Shown piece after piece: positions 4,491-20,838 of a stretch of 54,831 bases of DNA. The notes below the pieces were generated by a model that was not told the origin of the DNA, searched no databases, and was given only the letters and a program-made list of their open reading frames with translations. A program made the translations under genes and the position numbers. The DNA comes from an uncultured Syntrophomonas sp. (GTDB lineage: Bacteria; Bacillota; Syntrophomonadia; Syntrophomonadales; Syntrophomonadaceae): contig CAZTZX010000004.1 of the NCBI GenBank assembly GCA_964618175.1, positions 1 through 54,831 on the forward strand, read 5' to 3'. Within the stretch, counting starts at the first letter, position 1, and each line of letters begins with the position of its first letter.

Positions 4491-4603
4491 ATTTCCATGA
4501 TATTCCATGGTTATAATAAAGGATATTGTCATTTAATGTTGAATTCTGGGTAGTAATTACTTTTCTGTAAAGAAAACTTTGCAAAGGAAAGGAGTGATAA
4601 TCT

Positions 4604-6121
4604 TTGCAAAAAGTAAGAGCTACCATTTCACGTTGTATAGCAGTACTCATTATTGCGGTTCTAGCCTGGTCCGCGATCATGGTACTGCCAAAGGATGCCG
4701 AGGGACTGACTATATCGTATCAACAAGCAACCACCATTGCTTCGCCCCAGCAGCCAGCCGGGATTGATGGCAATCCTTCTTCAGAAGCTGTCACCATTAG
4801 GGTTAACGGAGTTCCCTATACATATTACACTTCGGTGTCAGGATCCACCCCACTACCGAACTTAAAACCGCTGGTAACTACACCGAAAGTACCTACCGGA
4901 TTAAAGGTTGTTTCGATAGGTAATGGTCGACTTGATCTGTCCTGGAACAGAAACTCCGAATCCGACTTAAAGCAGTATCGTCTGGCCTATAAGCCGGCAG
5001 GTGGTTCTTATAAGTCTGTGTTTACCACTGGTACAAGCTATAGTTTAAGCGGCTTGGAGAACGGCAAAAAGTACACTCTGAAGGTCAAAGCTATCAGTAA
5101 TAGCGGTGGAGAATCCAGTTACTGTAGCTTTGTATACGCTACTCCCAAGTTAACAGCCCCCAGTGTGCCCAAAGGATTAACAGTTGTGTCGGTTGGTGAC
5201 GGCCAACTGGACGTTGCCTGGAACAAGAATTCCGAATCCAATTTAAAGCAGTATCGTCTGGCTTATAAACCAGAAGGTGGATCCTACAAGTCTGTTTATA
5301 CTACTGGTACAAGCTGTAGCTTGATCGGCCTTGAAAACGGCAAGAAATACACTCTGAAAGTCAAAGCTATCAGTAATAGCGGTGAAGAGTCCAGTTACTG
5401 TAGCTTTGTCTATGCAAAACCAGCTAGTTCTGCTACGCCCCCATCTCAGTCAAACGTTGAAGTAAAAACGCTGGCATCCGGAACTAAACAGGCGACTTCA
5501 CTGTATGTGATCAAGAGTGGTAAACCGGGACCAGTTGTTATGGTTGTGGGCGGTGTACACGGTAATGAAAAGGCTGGTTATACTGCAGCCCGAAAAATAT
5601 CCGAATACCAGGTCAGCCGTGGTACTCTCCTGGTTCTACCTGAAGCTAACCAATTAGCTATTAAGGCCGGTCGTCGAGCAGCCTCAGGCTATAGTGATCT
5701 GAACCGTTCATTCCCCCAATCATCCAGCCAGGCACCCAAGACGGCTTTATCTCGTGCTATTTACAGTGCGATCAAGGACCATAAAGTTGACTGGTTAATA
5801 GATCTTCATGAGGGGTACGACTACTACAAAAACTCCAGCACTAATTCTGTCGGTCAGACCATGATTTATTATCCAGCTAATTCTACCCGACCCACAGCTC
5901 AAGCTATAGTGAATGATCTAAATAAGGGTATCAGCACTTCAAGCCAGAAATTCACCCTACTACGTTATCCGGTCAAAGGTAGTTTGACCCGGGCAGCTGG
6001 CGAATATCTAGGGGTTCGTGCTATGATCTTTGAGACCTATTCTAAACCTGCCTTGTCGACCCGGGTTAAATACCAAACCCAGGCGGTCAATAAACTGTTG
6101 AGCAGTCTAAATATGCGCTAG
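4604..6121 (+). CDS. Secreted protein: signal/anchor segment, two tandem fibronectin type III domains, and a C-terminal M14/succinylglutamate-desuccinylase-like zinc carboxypeptidase domain
   Basis: - TTG start 8 nt after GGAGTG.
- Hydrophobic N-terminus: CIAVLIIAVLAWSAIMVL.
- Two 92-aa FN3 units (LxxSWNxN...YRLAYKP...KKYTLKVKAISNSG).
- Peptidase motifs: VVGGVHGNEKAGYTAA, DLNRSFP, WLIDLHEG. Confidence 0.75.
   Translation: MQKVRATISRCIAVLIIAVLAWSAIMVLPKDAEGLTISYQQATTIASPQQPAGIDGNPSSEAVTIRVNGVPYTYYTSVSGSTPLPNLKPLVTTPKVPTGLKVVSIGNGRLDLSWNRNSESDLKQYRLAYKPAGGSYKSVFTTGTSYSLSGLENGKKYTLKVKAISNSGGESSYCSFVYATPKLTAPSVPKGLTVVSVGDGQLDVAWNKNSESNLKQYRLAYKPEGGSYKSVYTTGTSCSLIGLENGKKYTLKVKAISNSGEESSYCSFVYAKPASSATPPSQSNVEVKTLASGTKQATSLYVIKSGKPGPVVMVVGGVHGNEKAGYTAARKISEYQVSRGTLLVLPEANQLAIKAGRRAASGYSDLNRSFPQSSSQAPKTALSRAIYSAIKDHKVDWLIDLHEGYDYYKNSSTNSVGQTMIYYPANSTRPTAQAIVNDLNKGISTSSQKFTLLRYPVKGSLTRAAGEYLGVRAMIFETYSKPALSTRVKYQTQAVNKLLSSLNMR
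4889..5422 (+). repeat. Tandem in-frame duplication of 276 nt (two FN3 domains) inside the peptidase gene
   Basis: Unit 1 is 4889-5164 and unit 2 runs from 5165 to about 5422. Long identical DNA runs are shared, for example AAAGCAGTATCGTCTGGC, GTCAAAGCTATCAGTAATAGCGGTG and TCCAGTTACTGTAGCTTTGT. Confidence 0.85.
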
Positions 6122-6132
6122 TCTTTAGACGT

Positions 6133-7782
6133 TTAACGAATAATATTAGTTCGGCTGGTTCCGCGAATGGGACCGGAGGTTATTCGACCACGTTGGGTAG
6201 TAGTCGATACTGACCTCCGGTCTCGACTTGCATTTACAGAAGCACGCGACCTGGTAGTGCGCATATCAGTTACGCCAACTCGCGAGCTGCTTCTGGAATA
6301 ATAGGAGGATCGACCAGGTCGGCTACTGCCTGATGTACCTCCTAAAGGGCTCATGGTACTGCTGGTAGCTGATAACACTGAGGATGGTCTGTTGCGTGAC
6401 TTACTGGCACTGTTATATTCCCTTTTAGCAGGTTGATTTAGCTTCCAGCCTTTTCTTAGATCAGTTTTTTCATCCCAGATCACCTGGTTCATTATCATTT
6501 CCGGTATAATTTGCAGCTCTCCCTGGTATTCTTGATACAAATCCAATTTCTCTATATTAGCCCATAAGGAATCAAACATGGGCCGAAAATAATCCTGGTC
6601 CCCTTTATAAAAAGCCTTTTGAGCCTCGGCAGTATTTAGATAGTTCTGGGGAATTTCCGCGTAACGATTAGCAACGATCTTGGCCAGACATAACACTGCG
6701 GTAGTCACTTTTTGACTCATCAACCAACTTCCCGGAGTGCGATATTCAAAACCTCCATGCTCTTTTATTCGATAGTCTCCCATGAAACCATATTTTCTTC
6801 TTCGCCGGGCGGCTGAGGTAGGATTTTCGATCAAGAAGATGGGGATGCCCAGATAGTTGTCAAGAGCTCTGAGTAGACCCCCGTCCAACTTAATGTTACT
6901 GAAGTGTATGTGTCCACCTATAGAGTAACCTTTTACCGGCTGGCTTCCTGCGATCCAACGGGTATTCCGATAAGGTGCCATCCTGGAGGCACTGATAAGA
7001 GCCTGCCTTATATTTGAACTAAGTTCTAAAGGTGACAAAGTTGGGCGGGGTCTTACCTCGGCAATAGGCCGCTGCTGCCGGTTGGGAACTCGAATATTAT
7101 CGCAGCCGATTATGCCATCTCGCGGAAAGAACTCCGAGGCCGATAGCATTTTGCCCGTCTTGCTATTTAGGATCATGAACTCAGGATCAGCTCCCATTTT
7201 AACCTGTATGCTTCTGAGTTCGACTTCCCTTTCAGCCATGTTTTTAATCTTATCCATGATGTGATTAAAATCTTTATCGCGAGGTTCGGGAGAGGAGTTT
7301 ATATTGACCACCTTATAACGGCGCTTAGCGGTCAGCACTATAGTCACCATAGCTATATCCAATCCTACCAAATAGGCTACCCTTCTGGCTAAATCAGCAA
7401 TCTTTTGGTTATCTCTTTCCCGAATATACTTGGACTGCTGTTTACCTCTTATAAAGGTGGAAACTTTTATTGAAACTGCCTCCAGGTCCACTATCAACAC
7501 GTCATAGCTTCGATTTACGGTTTCCTCTTCTGATAATCCATGATAAATACTGTTAGCACTAAGGATTCCAGTAGCTTTATCAATATCTAAGCTGTTGCGT
7601 ACTGCGCGGGGGGTATTAATAATACGTCGTACCGATGAAAAGCGGTCAATGCGATCGATCTGATAATAATCTATATTATTAATGGCCAAGACCCTGTATT
7701 CTACTTCCTCAAACAGTTTTTGCATGGCATTCAGCAGCTTTTCTCCAACCGAATTCATTTGGTATAGTATAGTCAGATTCAT
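6133..7782 (-). CDS. phiEco32-like COOH-NH2 ligase type 2 (amidoligase) with an ATP-grasp-like N-terminal region and a Ser/Arg-rich C-terminal tail
   Basis: - The ATG at 7782 is preceded by AAGGAAGG. The track start at 7824 would overlap the upstream gene.
- Central motifs: GADPEFMI, GYSIGGHIHFS, GGFEYRTPGSW.
- The N-terminal part ends ARRVAYLVGLDIAMVTIVLTAKRRYKVVNINSSPE.
- The last 101 aa are low-complexity and rich in S, R and T. Confidence 0.6.
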   Translation of the reverse strand: MNLTILYQMNSVGEKLLNAMQKLFEEVEYRVLAINNIDYYQIDRIDRFSSVRRIINTPRAVRNSLDIDKATGILSANSIYHGLSEEETVNRSYDVLIVDLEAVSIKVSTFIRGKQQSKYIRERDNQKIADLARRVAYLVGLDIAMVTIVLTAKRRYKVVNINSSPEPRDKDFNHIMDKIKNMAEREVELRSIQVKMGADPEFMILNSKTGKMLSASEFFPRDGIIGCDNIRVPNRQQRPIAEVRPRPTLSPLELSSNIRQALISASRMAPYRNTRWIAGSQPVKGYSIGGHIHFSNIKLDGGLLRALDNYLGIPIFLIENPTSAARRRRKYGFMGDYRIKEHGGFEYRTPGSWLMSQKVTTAVLCLAKIVANRYAEIPQNYLNTAEAQKAFYKGDQDYFRPMFDSLWANIEKLDLYQEYQGELQIIPEMIMNQVIWDEKTDLRKGWKLNQPAKREYNSASKSRNRPSSVLSATSSTMSPLGGTSGSSRPGRSSYYSRSSSRVGVTDMRTTRSRASVNASRDRRSVSTTTQRGRITSGPIRGTSRTNIIR

Positions 7783-7786
7783 AAGA

Positions 7787-9127
7787 CTACCTTCCTTTAG
7801 AATTGTGTTCAGCTGCAAAAACAAAATAATCTATTAAGAGTTCCATATGTCTATGGCGGATATCAGTTTCATCAAATCTAGCCGGCTTGGAGTTAATTTC
7901 TAATATCCATAATTTACCTGATGAGTCCACCCCGATGTCCAAGGATAAAACACCCAACGTAATCTTTAATCCTTTCTCTAGAACACCGGGCACACTACGG
8001 CAAATGTTATGCAATTCTTGCTCAATAGAATTCTGCAATTTTTGAGTAGGAAACACCTCCTTAATCACAGTATGGAAATTGGCTCGTGAACCACCATTTG
8101 GTACGTGGGTTACGAATCGGTTACGAGCAGCAACGCGCACCCCTACTCCAGTTAATACCCATTCTCCCTGTCGGTTTTTTTGGGCCTGGGCACGTAAATC
8201 AAACACTCTCCCATCCAAGCGAGCGAGCTCTATCCCCTGTTGAAGAATATATCGCCGTGGATGATCGACGCTTTGCCTCAATCTCATGTGGAGTCGGTGA
8301 TAATTGGGTACGTAAATCCAGTTCTTGCCCTTCCATTCTGTGCGACCATAACGAAATCCACGCCCATAGACACGCTCAACTTTTAAGATCCCCTGGCCTT
8401 TGCTGCTGTGGCAGGGCTTTAGAAATAGTTCCTTATGTCGATGCAGCAGTGATTGGAGACTGGTTCCACTGAAAGGTGTAGTCTCAGGAAGCCAAAATCG
8501 CGCCTGGGGGTCTTGTTCTAATACCCTGAAGACTTCCCATTTATTAAGAAAGCGCCGATTGAATAGATAAACTCCCGGATATTTATCGAAACCTGCCAAT
8601 ACTTTTTGAACCGCCCTTTGATTTTCTGTACTTCGATATAGAATGCGGTTGTATACCACATCAGGTATAGGAAAACTACCGCTGATCCATTTGCCATTAG
8701 GAGTAAAGGTTTGTCCGCGAATAAGGCCTCGTCCCCAAGAAATGTCCTGAGGAAAGAAGTAATAGATGAATATGCCTTCTTTCCAGCCCTGGAGTATGAG
8801 CTGTTTGTACAATCGGCCGACTTTTGAATTTATGGTAGTCTCACCGGGTTTACCTGCAGTCAGTACTCCCACTATCGGACCGATCCTTATGCTTTTTTCA
8901 TCTTGCCTTAAGATACGATGTGAATAGGCGGGAATATTGAGAGCTCGCCCTACTGCCGGTGGTATCTTAAGTAGGCGGGCAGAATCAGACGAAGCTTGGG
9001 GATCAATTTGGGCTTGAATGGTAAGGGAACGATTGCCAGCCTGAAGCAGAATAGCGTCCGGAAGTTTTGAAGCAATGATAGAAGGGATTAAAACTGATGG
9101 TTTTTTACTGTGTGCACTTCGCATCAT
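7787..9127 (-). CDS. YheC/YheD-family ATP-grasp protein (endospore-coat-associated family)
   Basis: Motifs IRIGPIVGVL, PIPDVVYNR, FLNKWEV, FLKPCHSSKGQGI, ILQQGIEL...FDLR and LWILEINSKPA. SD GAAGGAG lies before the ATG. Confidence 0.8.
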   Translation of the reverse strand: MMRSAHSKKPSVLIPSIIASKLPDAILLQAGNRSLTIQAQIDPQASSDSARLLKIPPAVGRALNIPAYSHRILRQDEKSIRIGPIVGVLTAGKPGETTINSKVGRLYKQLILQGWKEGIFIYYFFPQDISWGRGLIRGQTFTPNGKWISGSFPIPDVVYNRILYRSTENQRAVQKVLAGFDKYPGVYLFNRRFLNKWEVFRVLEQDPQARFWLPETTPFSGTSLQSLLHRHKELFLKPCHSSKGQGILKVERVYGRGFRYGRTEWKGKNWIYVPNYHRLHMRLRQSVDHPRRYILQQGIELARLDGRVFDLRAQAQKNRQGEWVLTGVGVRVAARNRFVTHVPNGGSRANFHTVIKEVFPTQKLQNSIEQELHNICRSVPGVLEKGLKITLGVLSLDIGVDSSGKLWILEINSKPARFDETDIRHRHMELLIDYFVFAAEHNSKGR

Positions 9128-9239
9128 GAGACTCCTTCACTGTTTTATAATGCATAATATGTCTCATGGATGAAGTAAGTGCAAAGCACCCTCTTATGTC
9201 GATAATAATAATTGTCTAAAAAGTGGGTCTAAAATAGAT

Positions 9240-10682
9240 TCACTCTCGCCAGTAAGCAGGGACAAGGAGCAGTATAAAAGTATATAGCTCTAGGCGGCCT
9301 AGCAGCATTAACAAACACAAAAAGTATTTGCCGATGTCGGATATAAAGCCATAGTTTACCATGGGACCTACTGCAGCAAATCCTGGACCTACATTCCCTA
9401 AGCAAGCAATCGATGCGCTTAACCCACTGAGCAAGTCAAGTCCAAGCGCATTCATAACCAAAGCCCCCAACAAGGCTATTAAGAGGTAAAGAAAAATGAA
9501 CTGCAGAACACTAATAACCAATGATTCGTCCAAATGTTTGTCACCAAATTTTTGAGATATCATGGCCCGGGGATGTAGCATGTGTTTCAACTCGATTTTG
9601 ACCCTCTGCAAAGCAATCAAATGACGAATTACCTTAATTCCACCTGCAGTGGAACCGGCACTTCCCCCTGTCAGCATTAACAACAACAGTACCCCTTTAC
9701 CAATAGGGGCCCATTGATCATAATCCATGGTTACATAACCGGTAGTCGTCATTACAGATATCACTTGAAAAGCAGCCGCCCGCAAGTTTTCAACCATCCC
9801 ATTTACTGCATTGATGCCGAACATCGCTAGGGCAACTGCTACTATAACTATGCAAGTATATAGTCGAAATTCCCCATCCAGCAGATACTGCTTAAAAGAC
9901 TTTTTGGAGTATATTTGATAATGGAGAGCAAAATTAGCCCCGCATAAAAACATGAATATCGTAATAACCCACTGTATGGCTGCACTATCCCAATAACCTA
10001 TGCTCTGATTCTTCGTGGAGAACCCCCCGGTAGCAACCGTACCAAAGGCATGACATATTGCATCAAAGAGATCCATCCCAAAAACCAGCAATAAAACGAG
10101 CAAAATTACGGTAAGAACAACATAGGTTAACCAAAGGAAGCGGGCCGTTTCCTTAATTCTTGGACTAAGCTTGTCAGAAACTGGTCCAGTCACTTCCGCT
10201 TTGAACATCTGATTGGCCTGAACCCCAATGCCACCAATTAAAGATACGAACAATACTATGATGCCCATTCCACCCAACCAGTGGGTCAGGCTCCTCCAGT
10301 ACAATAAACTGTGTGGCAGAGCCTCAACATCAGACAAAATGCTGGCTCCGGTAGTTGTGAACCCAGATACGGTTTCAAATAGTGCATTGGCAAAGGAAGG
10401 AATATAGCCGGTTAAAATGAATGGCAAGGTACCTAACACAGAAGCAGCTAACCAACCCAGAGTCACTACTGCAAATCCTTCTCGGTAATTCAGGGTATTA
10501 TTACGCTTATTAAATCTGCTTAGAATGATTCCCAGGCCGATGGTAAATAAAGCAGCCATTAATAATTGAGCGATTATTTGCTCCCCAAAAGCTAAAGCAC
10601 AGATCACATTTGATAACATGGCAATGCCAATAATGACAATGATCTTGCCGGTGTAATTGAGAACAACCACAGGTCGAACCAA
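9240..10682 (-). CDS. trkH: TrkH-family potassium uptake membrane subunit
   Basis: Multi-pass membrane protein with selectivity-filter-like repeats (SGFTTTGASIL, MTTTGY, GGSAGSTAGGIKV). The TTG start directly follows the trkA stop. Confidence 0.9.
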   Translation of the reverse strand: MVRPVVVLNYTGKIIVIIGIAMLSNVICALAFGEQIIAQLLMAALFTIGLGIILSRFNKRNNTLNYREGFAVVTLGWLAASVLGTLPFILTGYIPSFANALFETVSGFTTTGASILSDVEALPHSLLYWRSLTHWLGGMGIIVLFVSLIGGIGVQANQMFKAEVTGPVSDKLSPRIKETARFLWLTYVVLTVILLVLLLVFGMDLFDAICHAFGTVATGGFSTKNQSIGYWDSAAIQWVITIFMFLCGANFALHYQIYSKKSFKQYLLDGEFRLYTCIVIVAVALAMFGINAVNGMVENLRAAAFQVISVMTTTGYVTMDYDQWAPIGKGVLLLLMLTGGSAGSTAGGIKVIRHLIALQRVKIELKHMLHPRAMISQKFGDKHLDESLVISVLQFIFLYLLIALLGALVMNALGLDLLSGLSASIACLGNVGPGFAAVGPMVNYGFISDIGKYFLCLLMLLGRLELYTFILLLVPAYWRE

Positions 10683-12035
10683 TTAGTGCTTCCCTCCATT
10701 AACAAACAGTCTTTCTACTTGATGAACACTGTTGAGAAGAGTAAATATCATAAGCCTATCCCCGGCTCTGATCACACTTCCTCCACTTGGAATAATGACC
10801 ATGTCACCACGCACAATAGCCCCCAAAACTGAGCCTTTGGGAAATTTGATTCTTTTCAGTTCTTTATCGACGGCAGTGGAGCCAGGCTGAGCTATCAGTT
10901 CTATCATCTCCGCCCTATCCTCCCCAAAAACTGTTACTGATATGATATCCCCATACCTAATATATTTTAAGATAGCACCGGCGGTAAGCATGCGTGGACT
11001 AAACACTACATCAATACCGACTTGCTGCATTAATGGCATAATATCAGATCGCTTTACTTTGGCAATAGTCTTGGGCACACCCAAGTTGCTGGCAATCAAC
11101 GAAGAAAGAAGGTTGAGTTTGTCATCATTGCTGACCGCAATATACATGTCAGCCTGACCAACATTTTCACTTTCCAGTAGATCCAAGTCACTTCCATCTC
11201 CATTGATCACCAGGGCGTTTTTCACTAAATTAGATGCTTCCCGCGCTCTTTTGGCGTCCTTTTCGATAATTTTAATATTGATAGGTAAGCGCTTTTTCTC
11301 AAGGATTTGAGCCACATAGCACCCGGTACGTCCTCCCCCTAGAATGATGATATTTTCAGCGCGACGTCGCTTGATGCCTAGTGACTTCAAAACCTCCGGC
11401 ATATCATGAGTATTGGCAACCAAAAAGATCCGATCTCCAGCATATAAGGTGTCTTTGCCCCCCGGAACAATAGTCCGGTGCTTTCTGGTCATGGCAACAA
11501 TTACATACTTGGTACTATCCAAAGTGTTGATTCTCACACCGGCAATAGGTGATAGTTCCTCTACTAGTAACTCTAAAAGCTGGACACGACCCTGCGAGTA
11601 ATATTCAACATTCAGTGCTTCCGGATTCATCACGATTTTGGCGATTTCCATGGCCGTAACCCGCTCCGGATTAATGATCAGATCTATACCCAGCAAAGAC
11701 TCTGGAGAAAAGTGAGGAGTTTCGACATATTCGGTGTTACGAACCCTGGCAACGGTTGTTTCAACACCATACTGTTTGGCCAATAGACAGGCGATCATAT
11801 TTAATTCGTCTAATTCAGTAACTGCCACTACCATGTTGGCATGGCGAACACCAGCAGACTCCAGTACCCTCCAGGAGGCGCCACTGCCGTTAATGACCTG
11901 AACATCCAGAGCTTGATCGATCAATTGGGCTCTTTCTTCCTCCAGCTCGATTACTACCACATCATGATTCTCACTGGAAAGTAATTCAGCAATACTAAAA
12001 CCAACTTTACCTGCACCAATAATAATGGCCTTCAT
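10683..12035 (-). CDS. trkA: Trk system potassium uptake protein TrkA (double RCK/NAD-binding)
   Basis: Two Rossmann motifs, MKAIIIGAGKVG and IIILGGGRTGCYVA. The ATG at 12035 follows GGGGGA. The GTG at 12047 is an alternative start that overlaps the ychF stop. Confidence 0.9.
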   Translation of the reverse strand: MKAIIIGAGKVGFSIAELLSSENHDVVVIELEEERAQLIDQALDVQVINGSGASWRVLESAGVRHANMVVAVTELDELNMIACLLAKQYGVETTVARVRNTEYVETPHFSPESLLGIDLIINPERVTAMEIAKIVMNPEALNVEYYSQGRVQLLELLVEELSPIAGVRINTLDSTKYVIVAMTRKHRTIVPGGKDTLYAGDRIFLVANTHDMPEVLKSLGIKRRRAENIIILGGGRTGCYVAQILEKKRLPINIKIIEKDAKRAREASNLVKNALVINGDGSDLDLLESENVGQADMYIAVSNDDKLNLLSSLIASNLGVPKTIAKVKRSDIMPLMQQVGIDVVFSPRMLTAGAILKYIRYGDIISVTVFGEDRAEMIELIAQPGSTAVDKELKRIKFPKGSVLGAIVRGDMVIIPSGGSVIRAGDRLMIFTLLNSVHQVERLFVNGGKH

Positions 12036-12046
12036 AGCATCCCCCA

Positions 12047-13111
12047 CTAAACGTTGAAGCGAAAATGAACAATGTCCCCGTCTTTCACCATATATTCTTT
12101 ACCTTCCAGCCGAAATAGTCCATGCTCCTTTACAACTGCCATAGAGCCATGTTCTTTAAAAGCCTGATACTCCACCACTTCAGCTCTTATAAAACCACGT
12201 TCAATGTCAGAATGGATTTTACCGGCGGCTTTGCGAGCTGGAGTGCCTTTCTCGATAGTCCAAGCTTTAACTTCATCCTCACCTACCGTAAAAAAGGATA
12301 TCAGGCCCAGACGTTCGTACATACTACGAGAAACCTTGACCAGGCCAGGTTCGTCAATGCCAGCTTCCTGGATAAATAGGTCGCGTTCATCTTCTTCCAG
12401 TTCGGCTATATCACGTTCTATGCTGGCTGACAATTCCACTACCGGTATGCCGTATTGCTGGGAATACTCTTCCACTTGCACACGGTCTGGATACTGACCT
12501 GACAGTAGGTCTTTTTCCGAAAGATTGAGACAGATCAGCATCGGCTTATTGGTCAGAAACTGATAGGTTTTCATAATGTCTTGTTCCTCATCATCAAGCT
12601 CTATGTTGGAGAGAGGTTGCTGATTTTCTATAGCTTCACGTAAACGCGCCAATAAATGAATTTCTTTCTCAGCCTGAGCCTTACGTTTGCCGGCATTTAT
12701 GCGTTCCACTCTCTTATCAATTAAATCTAAGTCGGCTAGTAATAGTTCGTAATTAACCAGTTCAATGTCTCCTAGGGGATCAACTTTATCGCCCACCATA
12801 GGTACCTGGGCATCGGCAAATACCCTAACCACATGCAGTAAGGCATCCGCCTGCCTGACAGCATCCAAGAAAACAGAAGCGCCTTTATCATTACTAGGGG
12901 CCAGGCCAGGAATATCTACTACTTCCAGTTGGGCGTAAGTGGTCTTTTTCGGTCTATACGATTCAGATAAGTAATCAATGCGATAGTCGGGGATCCTTGA
13001 CATCGCTGAGTTAGCTTTGTTGGGTACCCCTCCTTTATGGCGTCCTTCAGTTAACAATTCAAAAATAGTAGTTTTCCCTACCATAGGTAAGCCGATAATT
13101 CCTAGCTGCAT
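12047..13111 (-). CDS. ychF: Ribosome-binding/redox-regulated ATPase YchF
   Basis: P-loop GIIGLPMVGKTTIF, then VDIPGL, and a C-terminal TGS-like region (IHSDIERGFIRAEVV). Confidence 0.9.
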   Translation of the reverse strand: MQLGIIGLPMVGKTTIFELLTEGRHKGGVPNKANSAMSRIPDYRIDYLSESYRPKKTTYAQLEVVDIPGLAPSNDKGASVFLDAVRQADALLHVVRVFADAQVPMVGDKVDPLGDIELVNYELLLADLDLIDKRVERINAGKRKAQAEKEIHLLARLREAIENQQPLSNIELDDEEQDIMKTYQFLTNKPMLICLNLSEKDLLSGQYPDRVQVEEYSQQYGIPVVELSASIERDIAELEEDERDLFIQEAGIDEPGLVKVSRSMYERLGLISFFTVGEDEVKAWTIEKGTPARKAAGKIHSDIERGFIRAEVVEYQAFKEHGSMAVVKEHGLFRLEGKEYMVKDGDIVHFRFNV

Positions 13112-17990: not shown

Positions 17991-19328
17991 TTAGAATCCT
18001 GCCAAATAAATACTGTATTCCAGAGGCCTTTTAAAAGCATTGCGCATTACTATTTTTGACATCTCAGTTACGGTAGTTTTGCGTGGTTTCGAATTGACCT
18101 CAATAAGCCATATGTTGCCACTTTTGTCCAATCCCAAATCCAGACCCAGTTCACCGTAGACCATTTGACTAGTTCTTTCAATGGTGGTGGCCACCTCGTG
18201 ACAGAATGCTTTTATCTCTTGGTTTTTTTCTTCTATTAAAGCGGCTTTGCGAAAAATTGCCCTCATAATTATTTTACTGGGTAAAGCTTTGCCTCCGCTG
18301 CTCAAATTTGCTACCGAACTTCCCCGGGGAGCAACGCGAACGAACTTTTTGCTGAGCTGCCATTCACCATTACGATTTTTTTGAAATATGATGCGGATAT
18401 CAAAAGGTGACCCATGGTACGTGGCCATATCTATTCCCTGTTGAACAATGTAGGGCTTATCAGCCCGTATGGCTCGGGTTCGATTAATAAAATCCGCCGC
18501 ATTATCAGCGGTACTGCGGAAGCGTTTGCGACGGTGCACCACATAGTGTAAGGTCTCTTTTCGGTCTTGAGTTACGCGAATAATTCCCAATCCCAGACTT
18601 CCATTGGTGGGTTTAACATATACCGTTTTATATACCCTCAACATATGGGCCAAGTTTTCTGTGGTTAATGGCCTGGTTTCCGGCAGATGTCGATGTAGTT
18701 TTGGATTAGTAAGTAGCATCTCATGAACGTTCCATTTATTGAGAAATGAGGGATTGAAATACTTCAGATAAGGCTGCTGCAGCAGGTTCATTTTTGCATT
18801 CTTGATTTGGTGGCGCGCTTCTCCCTTACGACTAGAAACTCGGTCATATACCACGTCTGGCAGTGGATAAATAGACGATATCCAACTACCCCTTCCCTGA
18901 CTAGAGTGACGATATGAATAACCCCTTACTGTGAGATTATCCCAATTAATAGAAGCCGGCGTAAATACATAGGTCTGGCCCGGCAAAGTTTTGCTGATGT
19001 GATTCAAATAAATAAGTTCTGCTTGCACACTAGTAGGATCACAATCCCCTCGGTTAGGTAGATTGGTAGCCAGGATCCCTATAGTTGGTCCCAGATGCAA
19101 CATATCCGCCTGCTTATCATACCTAATTTGCATACTCTTTCTTTTGTGAATATGAAGAGCTTGTGCCAGTGCTGGGGAAAGCATATAGGTAGCGCGTGTG
19201 TCAGGTTTAACCAGTAATTCTGCTGTAACTATCAGGCAACCCACTCTTACCTGCACCATTGGTTTTACTGTTATTCCCAGATGTTCAATCAAACGATCGG
19301 ACAGGAATATTTTGCCTACTATTTTCAT
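17991..19328 (-). CDS. YheC/YheD-family ATP-grasp protein (paralog 2)
   Basis: LHLGPTIGILA, PLPDVVYDR, FLNKWNV, YVKPTNGSLGLGI, IVQQGIDM...FDIR and IWLIEVNSKPR. Its start overlaps the stop of the upstream paralog by 4 nt. Confidence 0.8.
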   Translation of the reverse strand: MKIVGKIFLSDRLIEHLGITVKPMVQVRVGCLIVTAELLVKPDTRATYMLSPALAQALHIHKRKSMQIRYDKQADMLHLGPTIGILATNLPNRGDCDPTSVQAELIYLNHISKTLPGQTYVFTPASINWDNLTVRGYSYRHSSQGRGSWISSIYPLPDVVYDRVSSRKGEARHQIKNAKMNLLQQPYLKYFNPSFLNKWNVHEMLLTNPKLHRHLPETRPLTTENLAHMLRVYKTVYVKPTNGSLGLGIIRVTQDRKETLHYVVHRRKRFRSTADNAADFINRTRAIRADKPYIVQQGIDMATYHGSPFDIRIIFQKNRNGEWQLSKKFVRVAPRGSSVANLSSGGKALPSKIIMRAIFRKAALIEEKNQEIKAFCHEVATTIERTSQMVYGELGLDLGLDKSGNIWLIEVNSKPRKTTVTEMSKIVMRNAFKRPLEYSIYLAGF

Positions 19329-20707
19329 TTATCATACTCCTTTCCCGAAAATCCTGCCAGATAGCGACTATATAACAATGGGTTTATTATTGACTGCTGA
19401 CGCATTTGTTGCTCATCAATCAGATTAAATATTTGGCGGGCAGGACGTAAATTAGCCTCAATAAACCAGGTCTTTCCAGAAGTATCTATACCTAAGTCGA
19501 TTCCCATTTCTCCAGCCATACCGATGTTATTCTCTATAATTTGGGCTGATTCAAGTGCTATAAAGCTAAGATCCTGTTCAATTTGATCACGCTGTTCCTT
19601 TTCAGAAAAATGTCGATCCAAGACTGTGCTAAGTTTAGAGCCCCGACCACCAGAAGAAATGTTACTGGTGATAGAACCTTGTGCCCCCACGCGACATGCC
19701 ATGCCAGTGATATCCCATCGTCCGGTATGATTCTTCTGCACAATTGCTCTCACATCGGTAATATGACCCTGGAATGCTAGTAAACTAATGGGCTGTTGAG
19801 CCAGATATTCCCGTCGGCCCATTACACCGTGCAGAGCTCTTCGCAATTGACCTAAAGTCTGAGCTGTACCCCGGGCTGATTTTTGGTTTTTCTGATACTG
19901 GTATTGATAGTTGCGTTTCCGACTATTCCGGCTTACCCGTATAATATTGTTTCCTTTTGAGCCAATAATCGGCTTCAGATAAACTGCCTGGTATTTGTTT
20001 ATCATACTGTCAACGACACTGAAACTTGTGAGCAGTCTGGTATCAGGCAGATGCACCGCTAATCGGGAATGGTGGCTAATAATTTGATAAGTTAGCCATT
20101 TGCCAGCCATGGTAGGATTGATAAACTTCACTCCTAATTCATCAAACCTTTTGCGGAGGGAAAGCATAAGCCGGGAATATGAATAACTCCTCTCCCGCGG
20201 ATAAACTACATCCGGAAAAGGGTAGCTTCGTTTAGTCCAACCACCTTTTCCATATGTGTAGCCTGTGACGACCTGGTGCTGCCAATCGATACTGTGGGGG
20301 CTAAAGGCAAAACATATCTCCCCTATCTCTTGACCTCGTTTAAGAAGTTGCTTTATAAAGCCTGTCTGTCCATCATAAGGCCTATTGGGCCCGCCCAAAA
20401 TTTCGATCATAATTCCTACCATGGGACCCAGTCTGATCTCTTGACCATTACTTACATAGCCGTACTCATTATGAGCTTTCAAGCACAGCCGATGCAGGCT
20501 GGCCGGGTGCATATAGATAACCTCGGCAGTATTATTACTGTCTGATTGTATGTTTACTAAAAATGAGCCGCGCCGCTTACCAGTTCGAACCATAAGCTCT
20601 TCATTGTCTTGCAAGAACAGTCGCTTGGCTAATTGTTCAGTTATGGTAATTCTTCTTAAGCTTAGCTGGTCGTTGGCTGCAACACGAATTCTGGGAAACG
20701 AATACAT
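19325..20707 (-). CDS. YheC/YheD-family ATP-grasp protein (paralog 3)
   Basis: IRLGPMVGIMI, PFPDVVYPR, YLKPIIGSKGNNI, LAQQPISL...TDVR and TWFIEANLRPAR. Confidence 0.8.
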   Translation of the reverse strand: MYSFPRIRVAANDQLSLRRITITEQLAKRLFLQDNEELMVRTGKRRGSFLVNIQSDSNNTAEVIYMHPASLHRLCLKAHNEYGYVSNGQEIRLGPMVGIMIEILGGPNRPYDGQTGFIKQLLKRGQEIGEICFAFSPHSIDWQHQVVTGYTYGKGGWTKRSYPFPDVVYPRERSYSYSRLMLSLRKRFDELGVKFINPTMAGKWLTYQIISHHSRLAVHLPDTRLLTSFSVVDSMINKYQAVYLKPIIGSKGNNIIRVSRNSRKRNYQYQYQKNQKSARGTAQTLGQLRRALHGVMGRREYLAQQPISLLAFQGHITDVRAIVQKNHTGRWDITGMACRVGAQGSITSNISSGGRGSKLSTVLDRHFSEKEQRDQIEQDLSFIALESAQIIENNIGMAGEMGIDLGIDTSGKTWFIEANLRPARQIFNLIDEQQMRQQSIINPLLYSRYLAGFSGKEYDK

Positions 20708-20838
20708 CCAGTTATCGCCACCGTTCCTGTTTAGTATCTTATAATATGAAAATAGTTCATTCTTTGCTATTATTAAAATTACTGACTTATTTACGATTAG
20801 CAGCGATAATACTTGTAGCAGATGGAGAGATTAACATT

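Follow-up and report, generated by a model that had tools for sequence, protein, structure and literature searches.

A YheC/D-type ATP-grasp gene coupled to a COOH-NH2 ligase gene in Syntrophomonas: a candidate late-sporulation operon of a spore-coat-associated multi-ligase system

In a stretch of 54,831 nucleotides from an uncultured Syntrophomonas sp. (contig CAZTZX010000004.1 of assembly GCA_964618175.1; hereafter the window), two adjacent genes on the minus strand code for a YheC/D-type ATP-grasp protein (gene 1) and a phiEco32-like COOH-NH2 ligase type 2, or amidoligase (gene 2). We lean towards the view that this pair is the late-sporulation operon of a conserved spore-coat-associated multi-ligase system in Bacillota. 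The arguments come from the fixed partnership of the two genes, from the clustering of their relatives with the coat morphogenetic gene cotE in several classes of spore-formers, and from a promoter that appears to be of a late mother-cell type. The features from which this view starts are as follows.

7787..9127, minus strand: gene 1 (Y1), a YheC/D-type ATP-grasp protein of 446 aa (PF14398), with the catalytic positions all kept
6133..7782, minus strand: gene 2, the amidoligase, 549 aa
9132..9138, minus strand: GAAGGAG, the Shine-Dalgarno sequence of gene 1, read directly from the sequence, its aaGGAG being kept in the orthologous leaders
9154..9181, minus strand: putative sigmaK-type promoter of the gene 1/gene 2 operon, recognised by conservation of the motif across genomes

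Gene 1 runs from 9127 to 7787 and gene 2 from 7782 to 6133, with a 4-nt spacer between the stop of the first and the start of the second (TAG tctt ATG), and the Shine-Dalgarno sequence of gene 2, AAGGAAGG, is placed inside the final codons of gene 1. The coordinates, the strand, the gap and the embedded Shine-Dalgarno sequence were all found as an initial annotation of the same DNA had given them, and every peptide motif that it quoted could be located in the translations. A mechanical list of open reading frames had gene 2 starting at an upstream TTG (7824); we rejected this start, since the N-termini of 29 homologues, which all begin M-N/K/E-L, favour the ATG at 7782. The nearest proteins are from Syntrophomonadaceae, the top one from Syntrophomonas sp. 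UBA1376 (88% identity, compared with 50% for S. wolfei), and the window is part of a Syntrophomonadaceae chromosome. Its remaining content is ordinary for a chromosome, with trkHA, ychF, hbd, pfk, futalosine-pathway menaquinone genes, ddl, an EF-G family gene, queuosine genes and addAB.

First, we found that the pairing is conserved far beyond the window. The loci compared were from Syntrophomonadaceae (L001-L029) and from distant metagenome-assembled genomes (MAGs) of Bacillota/Clostridia (L030-L037). Within the family, a YheC/D gene lies directly upstream of the amidoligase gene in 27 of the 28 assessable cases (the window and 27 other Syntrophomonadaceae genome loci), and this arrangement is likewise present in S. 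wolfei Goettingen (CP000448). Outside the family, the amidoligase gene is beside at least one YheC/D gene in 10/10 loci. In the distant MAG loci it is flanked by YheC/D genes in a single co-directional cluster (8/8), with a CotE gene (PF10628, E 1e-37 to 1e-43) shortly upstream of it, again in 8/8. The cluster of Effusibacillus dendaii (AP023366, Bacilli) reads cotE, yheCD, yheCD, amidoligase, yheCD and is located upstream of miaB, mutS and mutL, and that of Phosphitispora sp. TUW77 (CP156677, Desulfotomaculia-like) reads cotE, cotE, four yheCD, amidoligase. All ten non-Syntrophomonadaceae loci thus combine the amidoligase with 3-5 YheC/D paralogs in one direction, cotE coming first. The initial annotation had asked whether the two genes stay neighbours elsewhere and had raised a link to the spore coat. 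The adjacency is not confined to the family, as Bacilli (Effusibacillus) and Desulfotomaculia-like genomes (Phosphitispora) have it too, and the coat connection is strengthened by cotE heading the cluster in each of these ten loci. The module is larger than the two ligases then proposed, as it consists of one amidoligase and 3-5 YheC/D paralogs.

The window itself holds three YheC/D genes, two of which had been overlooked in the earlier gene inventory:

17991..19328, minus strand: Y2, a YheC/D ATP-grasp protein of 445 aa (PF14398, E 1.2e-80, 270.9 bits)
19325..20707, minus strand: Y3, a YheC/D ATP-grasp protein of 460 aa (PF14398, E 1.4e-78, 264.1 bits)

Y3 and Y2 overlap by 4 nt and lie ~9-13 kb away from gene 1/gene 2, and orthologues of Y2 are found at the equivalent position in Syntrophomonadaceae loci. 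The ligase system of the window is spread over ~13 kb with housekeeping genes in between, the three YheC/D genes being kept apart by trkHA, ychF, a bPH-domain gene, hbd, a sigma54-activator gene and pfk. It seems that such housekeeping genes broke up an ancestral cluster in Syntrophomonadaceae.

Second, we found that the pair behaves as a single transcription unit, as had been said, with a conserved promoter motif in its own upstream region. The motif AC-N16-18-CATA[TC]NAT is directly 5' of the orthologous YheC/D gene in 27/27 Syntrophomonadaceae loci, amid intergenic surroundings that have diverged, and it is nearly always preceded by C, giving CAC-N17-CATAT(T/C)AT. Its background frequency is 0.056 per kb per strand (1.08 Mb), and it is also present in S. 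wolfei CP000448. Since the strict sigmaK motif is not significant within the window alone (2 matches for 0.56 expected), the evidence for this promoter is its conservation across genomes. In the window (9181..9154), it consists of CAC (-35), the 17-nt spacer ttacttcatccatgaga and CATATTAT (-10), and ends 27 nt before the ATG of gene 1. The sigmaE and sigmaK promoters of B. subtilis have the -10 in common and differ at position 4 of the -35, which is C for sigmaK and T for sigmaE (PMC517825). The conserved C at that position therefore points to a sigmaK-type promoter, that is to late mother-cell expression, by a rule from B. subtilis that is applied here to a distant class. Moreover, trkHA lies between ychF and gene 1 in the window and in L002, L003, L013, L017 and L018, and is absent in the closest relative, L001 (88% identity); because only some genomes carry trkHA there, the ligase operon must have its own promoter. 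The patchy occurrence of trkH/trkA (9240..12047) suggests a recent insertion or loss at that spot. Scanning for sigma-70 promoters and terminators gave no excess over shuffled controls.

Upstream of Y3-Y2 we noticed CATATTATA at 20748..20740, of which the -10 fits the mother-cell sigma type and the -35 (TAGCA) fits partly; the intergenic space between Y3 and the divergent gene at 20746 is just 38 nt. Relaxed mother-cell promoter matches (AC-N16-18-CATA...), which are common by chance, occur in pairs just 5' of cotE in both cultured genomes with the cotE cluster (L038 at 6321 and 6427, L040 at 3083 and 3167). The cotE gene of B. subtilis has two promoters.

Third, the proteins have the sequence signatures expected of ligases. 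In profile hidden Markov model (HMM) searches, gene 1 matched PF14398 (ATPgrasp_YheCD) over residues 186-434 with E 5.3e-69 and 232.7 bits, far over the cutoff of 26.8, so its assignment to the YheC/D ATP-grasps, made at first from motifs, holds. Eight positions (K196, K237, Q296, D310, R312, D397, E410 and N412) are invariant among 14 paralogs from four lineages that include the three of the window. Gene 1, Y2 and Y3 hence keep the ATP-binding Lys, the hinge Gln/Glu, the D-x-R, the Mg-binding D and the E-x-N; Y2, with its catalytic residues retained, also matches TTL and ATPgrasp_ST weakly.

Gene 1 clusters with the short amidoligase-adjacent paralogs of Effusibacillus and Phosphitispora and with the short paralog of the L034 cluster, all of which have a 5-residue gap after KPxR in common, and its residues 1-80 form an extension that is restricted to its clade. 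The long YheC/D paralogs have an N-terminal domain of ~80 aa, which passes as MazE/AbrB (PF04014, E 4.5e-6) in the Effusibacillus copy (L038 7217..7480) and matches Molydop_binding and CDC48_N weakly in other long paralogs. We rejected an AbrB-like call for the N-terminal 84 residues of gene 1, as these had no significant HMM match and only the Effusibacillus paralog passes. The MazE/AbrB-like barrel of the long paralogs may be a macromolecule-binding module. In S. wolfei CP000448 (L041 1..1541), the Y3 orthologue is just 186 aa long and stands beside a DDE transposase gene, so one YheC/D paralog may be disrupted in this type strain.

Gene 2 matched PF14395 (COOH-NH2_lig) with E 1.5e-103 and 345.9 bits (cutoff 25), its residues 196-448 covering the whole profile (1-254 of 254), in line with the family that had been recognised from its motifs. 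An AlphaFold (AF2) model built from 30 homologues reached a mean predicted local distance difference test score (pLDDT) of 81, most of the core being above 85, and the models together with Foldseek agree with the three-part layout first described by eye:

7207..7782, minus strand: gene 2 residues 1-192, truncated ATP-grasp-like domain (AF2, Foldseek, profile search)
6439..7197, minus strand: gene 2 residues 196-448, catalytic core of a COOH-NH2 ligase type 2 with the glutamine synthetase (GS)/GCS2 fold (PF14395, Foldseek)
6133..6420, minus strand: gene 2 residues 455-549 and stop, disordered basic tail rich in Ser, Arg and Thr (pLDDT <50)

The closest structures to the core are glutamine synthetases, YbdK (1r8g, 1tt4) and GshF (3ln7, 385 aligned columns), at E 1e-6 to 1e-5. 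Residues invariant in the 30 homologues include D199, E201, H291, H293, E319, R327, R328, E346 and R348, and the invariant acidic, His and Arg residues are located in GADPEF, GGHIHFS and GGFEYR. Gene 2 is accordingly a carboxylate-amine ligase by family and fold, with catalytic-type residues that do not vary, and ATP-dependent activity is predicted from this residue conservation. PDB sequence searches gave no match for either protein, and NCBIfam holds no model for them.

The N-terminal domain of gene 2 had been described as ending like the C-terminal half of an ATP-grasp. The fold proved right: modelled alone from homologue sequences taken from databases (AF2 pLDDT 93.8), the domain matched exclusively ATP-grasp ligases in the PDB by Foldseek (PsnB, MdnB/C, RimK, LysX/ArgX, Ddl, cyanophycin synthetase), with E 2e-6 to 2e-4 and a query-normalised TM score of ~0.5. 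In a profile search against 1.8 billion cluster representatives, we found mainly amidoligase fusions, and also ~250-aa proteins that Pfam places among RimK/R2K/Ddl-type ATP-grasps (E 1e-7 to 1e-4). The case for homology to ATP-grasp is made by structure and by this large-library profile, since hhalign gave no significant match of the domain to the YheC/D profile (probability 1.9%). The domain is, however, truncated, degenerate and probably inactive. It has 193 residues, compared with ~290 for a complete ATP-grasp enzyme, and lacks the full length, the lid/Lys loop set and the conserved E-x-N of a three-subdomain ATP-grasp. In the Mg-binding E-x-N, the first residue varies and the last can be D, N or E, and the only invariant residues are N56, N77, Y93, G140-L-D142 and P165. 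The domain is therefore ATP-grasp-like but probably non-catalytic, and we do not count it as a third ligase; it may be a degenerate docking or substrate-binding module rather than a third active site.

The tail is of low complexity, with 26% Ser, 18% Arg and an isoelectric point (pI) of 12 in the window. Across the 30 homologues its sequence varies (Ser mostly 14-31%, Arg mostly 10-24%, pI 10-12), and a C-terminal motif, GR[IV]xxSxQ[IV]RRTxxxR, is conserved. It is specific to Syntrophomonadaceae, the ~470-aa homologues from other lineages having no tail.

Both the likenesses and the differences to known systems help to place the pair. The yheC and yheD genes of B. subtilis are expressed in the mother cell as part of the sigmaE/SpoIIID regulon (PMC517825), and YheD belongs to the basement layer of the coat, where it depends on SpoIVA (PMC7725329). 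Like YheC and YheD, gene 1, Y2 and Y3 belong to PF14398 with complete ATP-grasp motifs and include a tandem pair (here Y3-Y2), and they may likewise be tied to mother-cell sporulation, to judge by the promoter type. They differ in that gene 1 is coupled to a COOH-NH2 ligase gene and has a promoter that appears to be of sigmaK, not sigmaE, type; the yheCD genes of B. subtilis presumably have no COOH-NH2 ligase gene as a neighbour. Gene 2 shares with the phiEco32-like COOH-NH2 ligases type 2, GCS2 and YbdK the full-profile match, the GS/GCS2 fold and the motif residues, whereas its own subfamily is chromosomal in Bacillota, has the extra truncated ATP-grasp N-domain and, in Syntrophomonadaceae, the basic tail. 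Iyer and colleagues are said to have defined both families in 2009 and to have predicted a likely peptide-ligation role for them by comparative genomics, and the window genes are plain orthologues of genes annotated as 'putative amidoligase domain-containing protein' and as YheC/D family. Hence the cotE linkage, the putative sigmaK-type promoter, the pairing of a YheC-like orthogroup with the amidoligase, the truncated ATP-grasp and the Ser/Arg tail refine a known prediction and do not make a new kind of system. We found no paper in a literature search that links the amidoligase with YheC/D or cotE, or that reports a reaction.

On this basis we propose how the system may work. The RNA polymerase with sigmaK would transcribe the operon in the mother cell late in sporulation. 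At the cost of ATP, each ligase would turn a carboxylate into an acyl-phosphate and then join it to an amine by an amide bond, so that the pair may carry out two successive amide ligations or tag a protein. With Y2 and Y3, both ligases might add amino acids to a spore-coat protein or another macromolecule, or cross-link it. The degenerate ATP-grasp domain of the amidoligase could serve for docking or for holding the substrate and may pair with the adjacent YheC-like enzyme, and the Ser/Arg tail of the Syntrophomonadaceae proteins with its end motif might target or anchor the enzyme at the spore surface.

A protein as substrate is consistent with what the N-domain of gene 2 looks like, as its modelled fold seems to resemble most closely ATP-grasps that modify peptides and proteins (PsnB, MdnC, RimK, LysX). 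In this, and in the weak TTL match of Y2, the system is similar to RimK, which acts on ribosomal protein S6, and to the TTL/TTLL enzymes of tubulin, whose antagonists are M14 peptidases, the CCP carboxypeptidases, the more so as an M14-like carboxypeptidase is encoded next door; it differs in that this carboxypeptidase is exported, the ligases being cytoplasmic, and in that the closest relatives of the carboxypeptidase act on peptidoglycan. That such a fold can modify proteins is shown by the Pup ligase PafA, an amidoligase of the GS superfamily whose reaction links a carboxylate to an amine of a protein. However, no relationship to PafA was detected at the sequence level (no PDB sequence match), and no Pup-like or proteasome gene is present here.

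Among the alternatives, the synthesis of a small peptide survives best, although we regard it as unlikely. The GCS2-like amidoligase would make a gamma-glutamyl-type dipeptide that the ATP-grasp extends, giving a soluble metabolite of the spore or mother cell or a short poly-amino acid. Glutathione is made by a GCS-fold and an ATP-grasp enzyme working together (GshA and GshB, or the fused GshF), the pair combines a GCS-fold ligase with ATP-grasp ligase(s) in the same way, the fold of gene 2 matches YbdK and the bifunctional GCS/ATP-grasp GshF, and no gene for a precursor or substrate protein is evident near the pair. In gene 2, however, the domain order is reversed compared with GshF, and the ATP-grasp part is truncated and has no conserved Mg and ATP residues, which means that there is no GshF-like second active site. 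Furthermore, the ATP-grasps here are several separate paralogs, 3-5 in each cluster, which exceeds what a di- or tripeptide needs. The context is one of sporulation, with cotE heading the clusters and B. subtilis YheD being physically in the coat (PMC7725329), and both the MazE/AbrB-like N-domains and the long disordered tail hint at macromolecules as partners.

Modification or recycling of the stem peptides of peptidoglycan or cortex is a further alternative, and quite an unlikely one in our view. In the mother-cell cytoplasm the ligases would put amino acids on muropeptides, or put them back, and an exported Csd4-like carboxypeptidase would trim the stem peptides outside the membrane. This idea draws on the gene that converges on the pair:

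4604..6121, plus strand: exported M14-like zinc carboxypeptidase (AstE/AspA, Csd4/Pgp1-like) of 505 aa (Pfam, structure matches)

Its end is 11 nt from the stop of gene 2, contrary to the initial annotation, which saw no peptidase gene next to the pair, and the gene is conserved. The protein has a hydrophobic N-terminus (signal peptide or anchor), two fn3 domains (E 9e-23), AstE_AspA_cat (2.5e-15), Peptidase_M99 (1.3e-10) and HGNE as HxxE motif, and its nearest solved structures are 4wcm, 4wck and 4q6m (E 6e-9), which we take to be Csd4/Pgp1 peptidoglycan carboxypeptidases. It is present and convergent in 25 of the 27 assessable Syntrophomonadaceae loci, and a homologue with 51% identity stands between the YheC/D gene and cotE in the distant L033. 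In addition, an NlpC/P60 gene abuts the Effusibacillus cluster and a Mur-ligase gene the Phosphitispora cluster, and Pfam reportedly gives 'spore-wall and capsular proteins' as what PF14398 members act on. On the other side, these neighbouring enzymes are on the opposite strand and differ from lineage to lineage, and the carboxypeptidase gene is missing from L023, L026 and most of the cotE-linked clusters. Its synteny counts for little, as the nearby ychF, hbd and pfk are equally conserved within the family, and upstream it has another conserved block in which no consistent mother-cell CATA motif was seen by eye. The carboxypeptidase is exported and its gene is outside the transcript of the pair; it is possibly associated with the ligase system.

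That gene 2 is a prophage remnant, or phage-derived and next to gene 1 by chance with no functional tie, is very improbable and effectively refuted by the conservation data: the family is named after a phage and two phage records match the core domain, but at no more than 28-36% identity, over a part of the core that makes up 17-30% of the protein, so that we reject a prophage origin, and the surrounding 55 kb are ordinary chromosome, with adjacency, translational coupling and promoter conserved over dozens of genomes of several classes.

Several observations nevertheless weigh against a late-sporulation operon of a coat-associated ligase system. Enzymes of peptidoglycan peptides (the Csd4-like carboxypeptidase, NlpC/P60 and the Mur ligase) are neighbours in three lineages and favour a chemistry of the cell wall over one of coat protein. 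By tblastn, no CotE homologue was found in the window or in L001-L029, and any cotE gene of these genomes would have to be in another place, so the coat link in Syntrophomonadaceae is suggested by orthology, by the promoter and by B. subtilis, and the reading of that promoter is itself carried over from B. subtilis. The sole exception to the pairing within the family is a second amidoligase copy of 479 aa (L021 1613..3052), from the same MAG as L008, which has neither a YheC/D partner nor the carboxypeptidase neighbour. No gene for a precursor, a substrate protein or a candidate substrate is evident near the pair. Finally, to our knowledge the experimental record on YheC/D proteins is from B. 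subtilis only, where neither a reaction nor a phenotype has been described.

Carried to its most specific form, the coat-associated system would be a dedicated, ATP-driven, non-ribosomal way of forming amide bonds at the surface of the spore in late sporulation, with the YheC/D paralogs and the amidoligase fused to a pseudo-ATP-grasp forming a hetero-complex via the degenerate domain. Coat proteins would receive peptide tails or be cross-linked by isopeptide bonds, which would be a second enzymatic route of cross-linking or decorating the coat beside the transglutaminase Tgl and would supply the missing function of YheC/YheD. We hold this version only tentatively and consider it rather doubtful as it stands.

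For two decades, YheC and YheD have been conserved spore-coat proteins without a reaction or phenotype, and this locus sharpens the problem. The fixed partnership of a YheC-like ATP-grasp with a GS-fold amidoligase, the clustering with cotE in several classes of spore-formers and the putative late mother-cell promoter give the 'unknown coat ATP-grasp' a hypothesis that can be put to the test, the ligation of peptides on the spore surface at the expense of ATP, and name Effusibacillus and Phosphitispora, with their compact clusters, as tractable genomes. If true, this would be a new type of covalent chemistry in spore-coat assembly; if false, for example with a small peptide or a cell-wall precursor as product, what remains is a pathway widespread in Bacillota that awaits characterisation.

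Around the carboxypeptidase gene, we made two further observations. The number of fn3 domains varies: two in the window, apparently one in L001/L002, where the length (~410 aa) suggests it, and in most others apparently none (~260 aa). The leader of the gene (4495..4603, plus strand, ~110 nt) is strongly conserved in 20 family loci, with the invariant blocks CCATAATTTAC, AGG, TGT.GAA and TTACTT and a Shine-Dalgarno region, GGAAAGGAATGA, that varies unusually little. It matched no Rfam family, RNAalifold gave no consensus structure, and by eye it received no sigma assignment. We think a promoter or a binding site for a regulator more probable here than a structured RNA.

Some of the distant clusters have further genes at their end. 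In L034-L037, a GNAT gene follows the cluster, and after it comes a gene for an unannotated 440-560-aa protein (L034 13558..15069, L035 13628..14956, L036 13263..14936, L037 7909..9267). They combine a conserved globular part with an acidic tail rich in Glu and Pro and a conserved WKPFPRPL-like motif, the L034 copy having no Pfam match, and might be either part of the coat or a substrate. In L033 (14250..16284), genes for a family 2 glycosyltransferase and a sugar nucleotidyltransferase stand after the YheC/D cluster and presumably resemble the spore-surface polysaccharide genes of B. subtilis.

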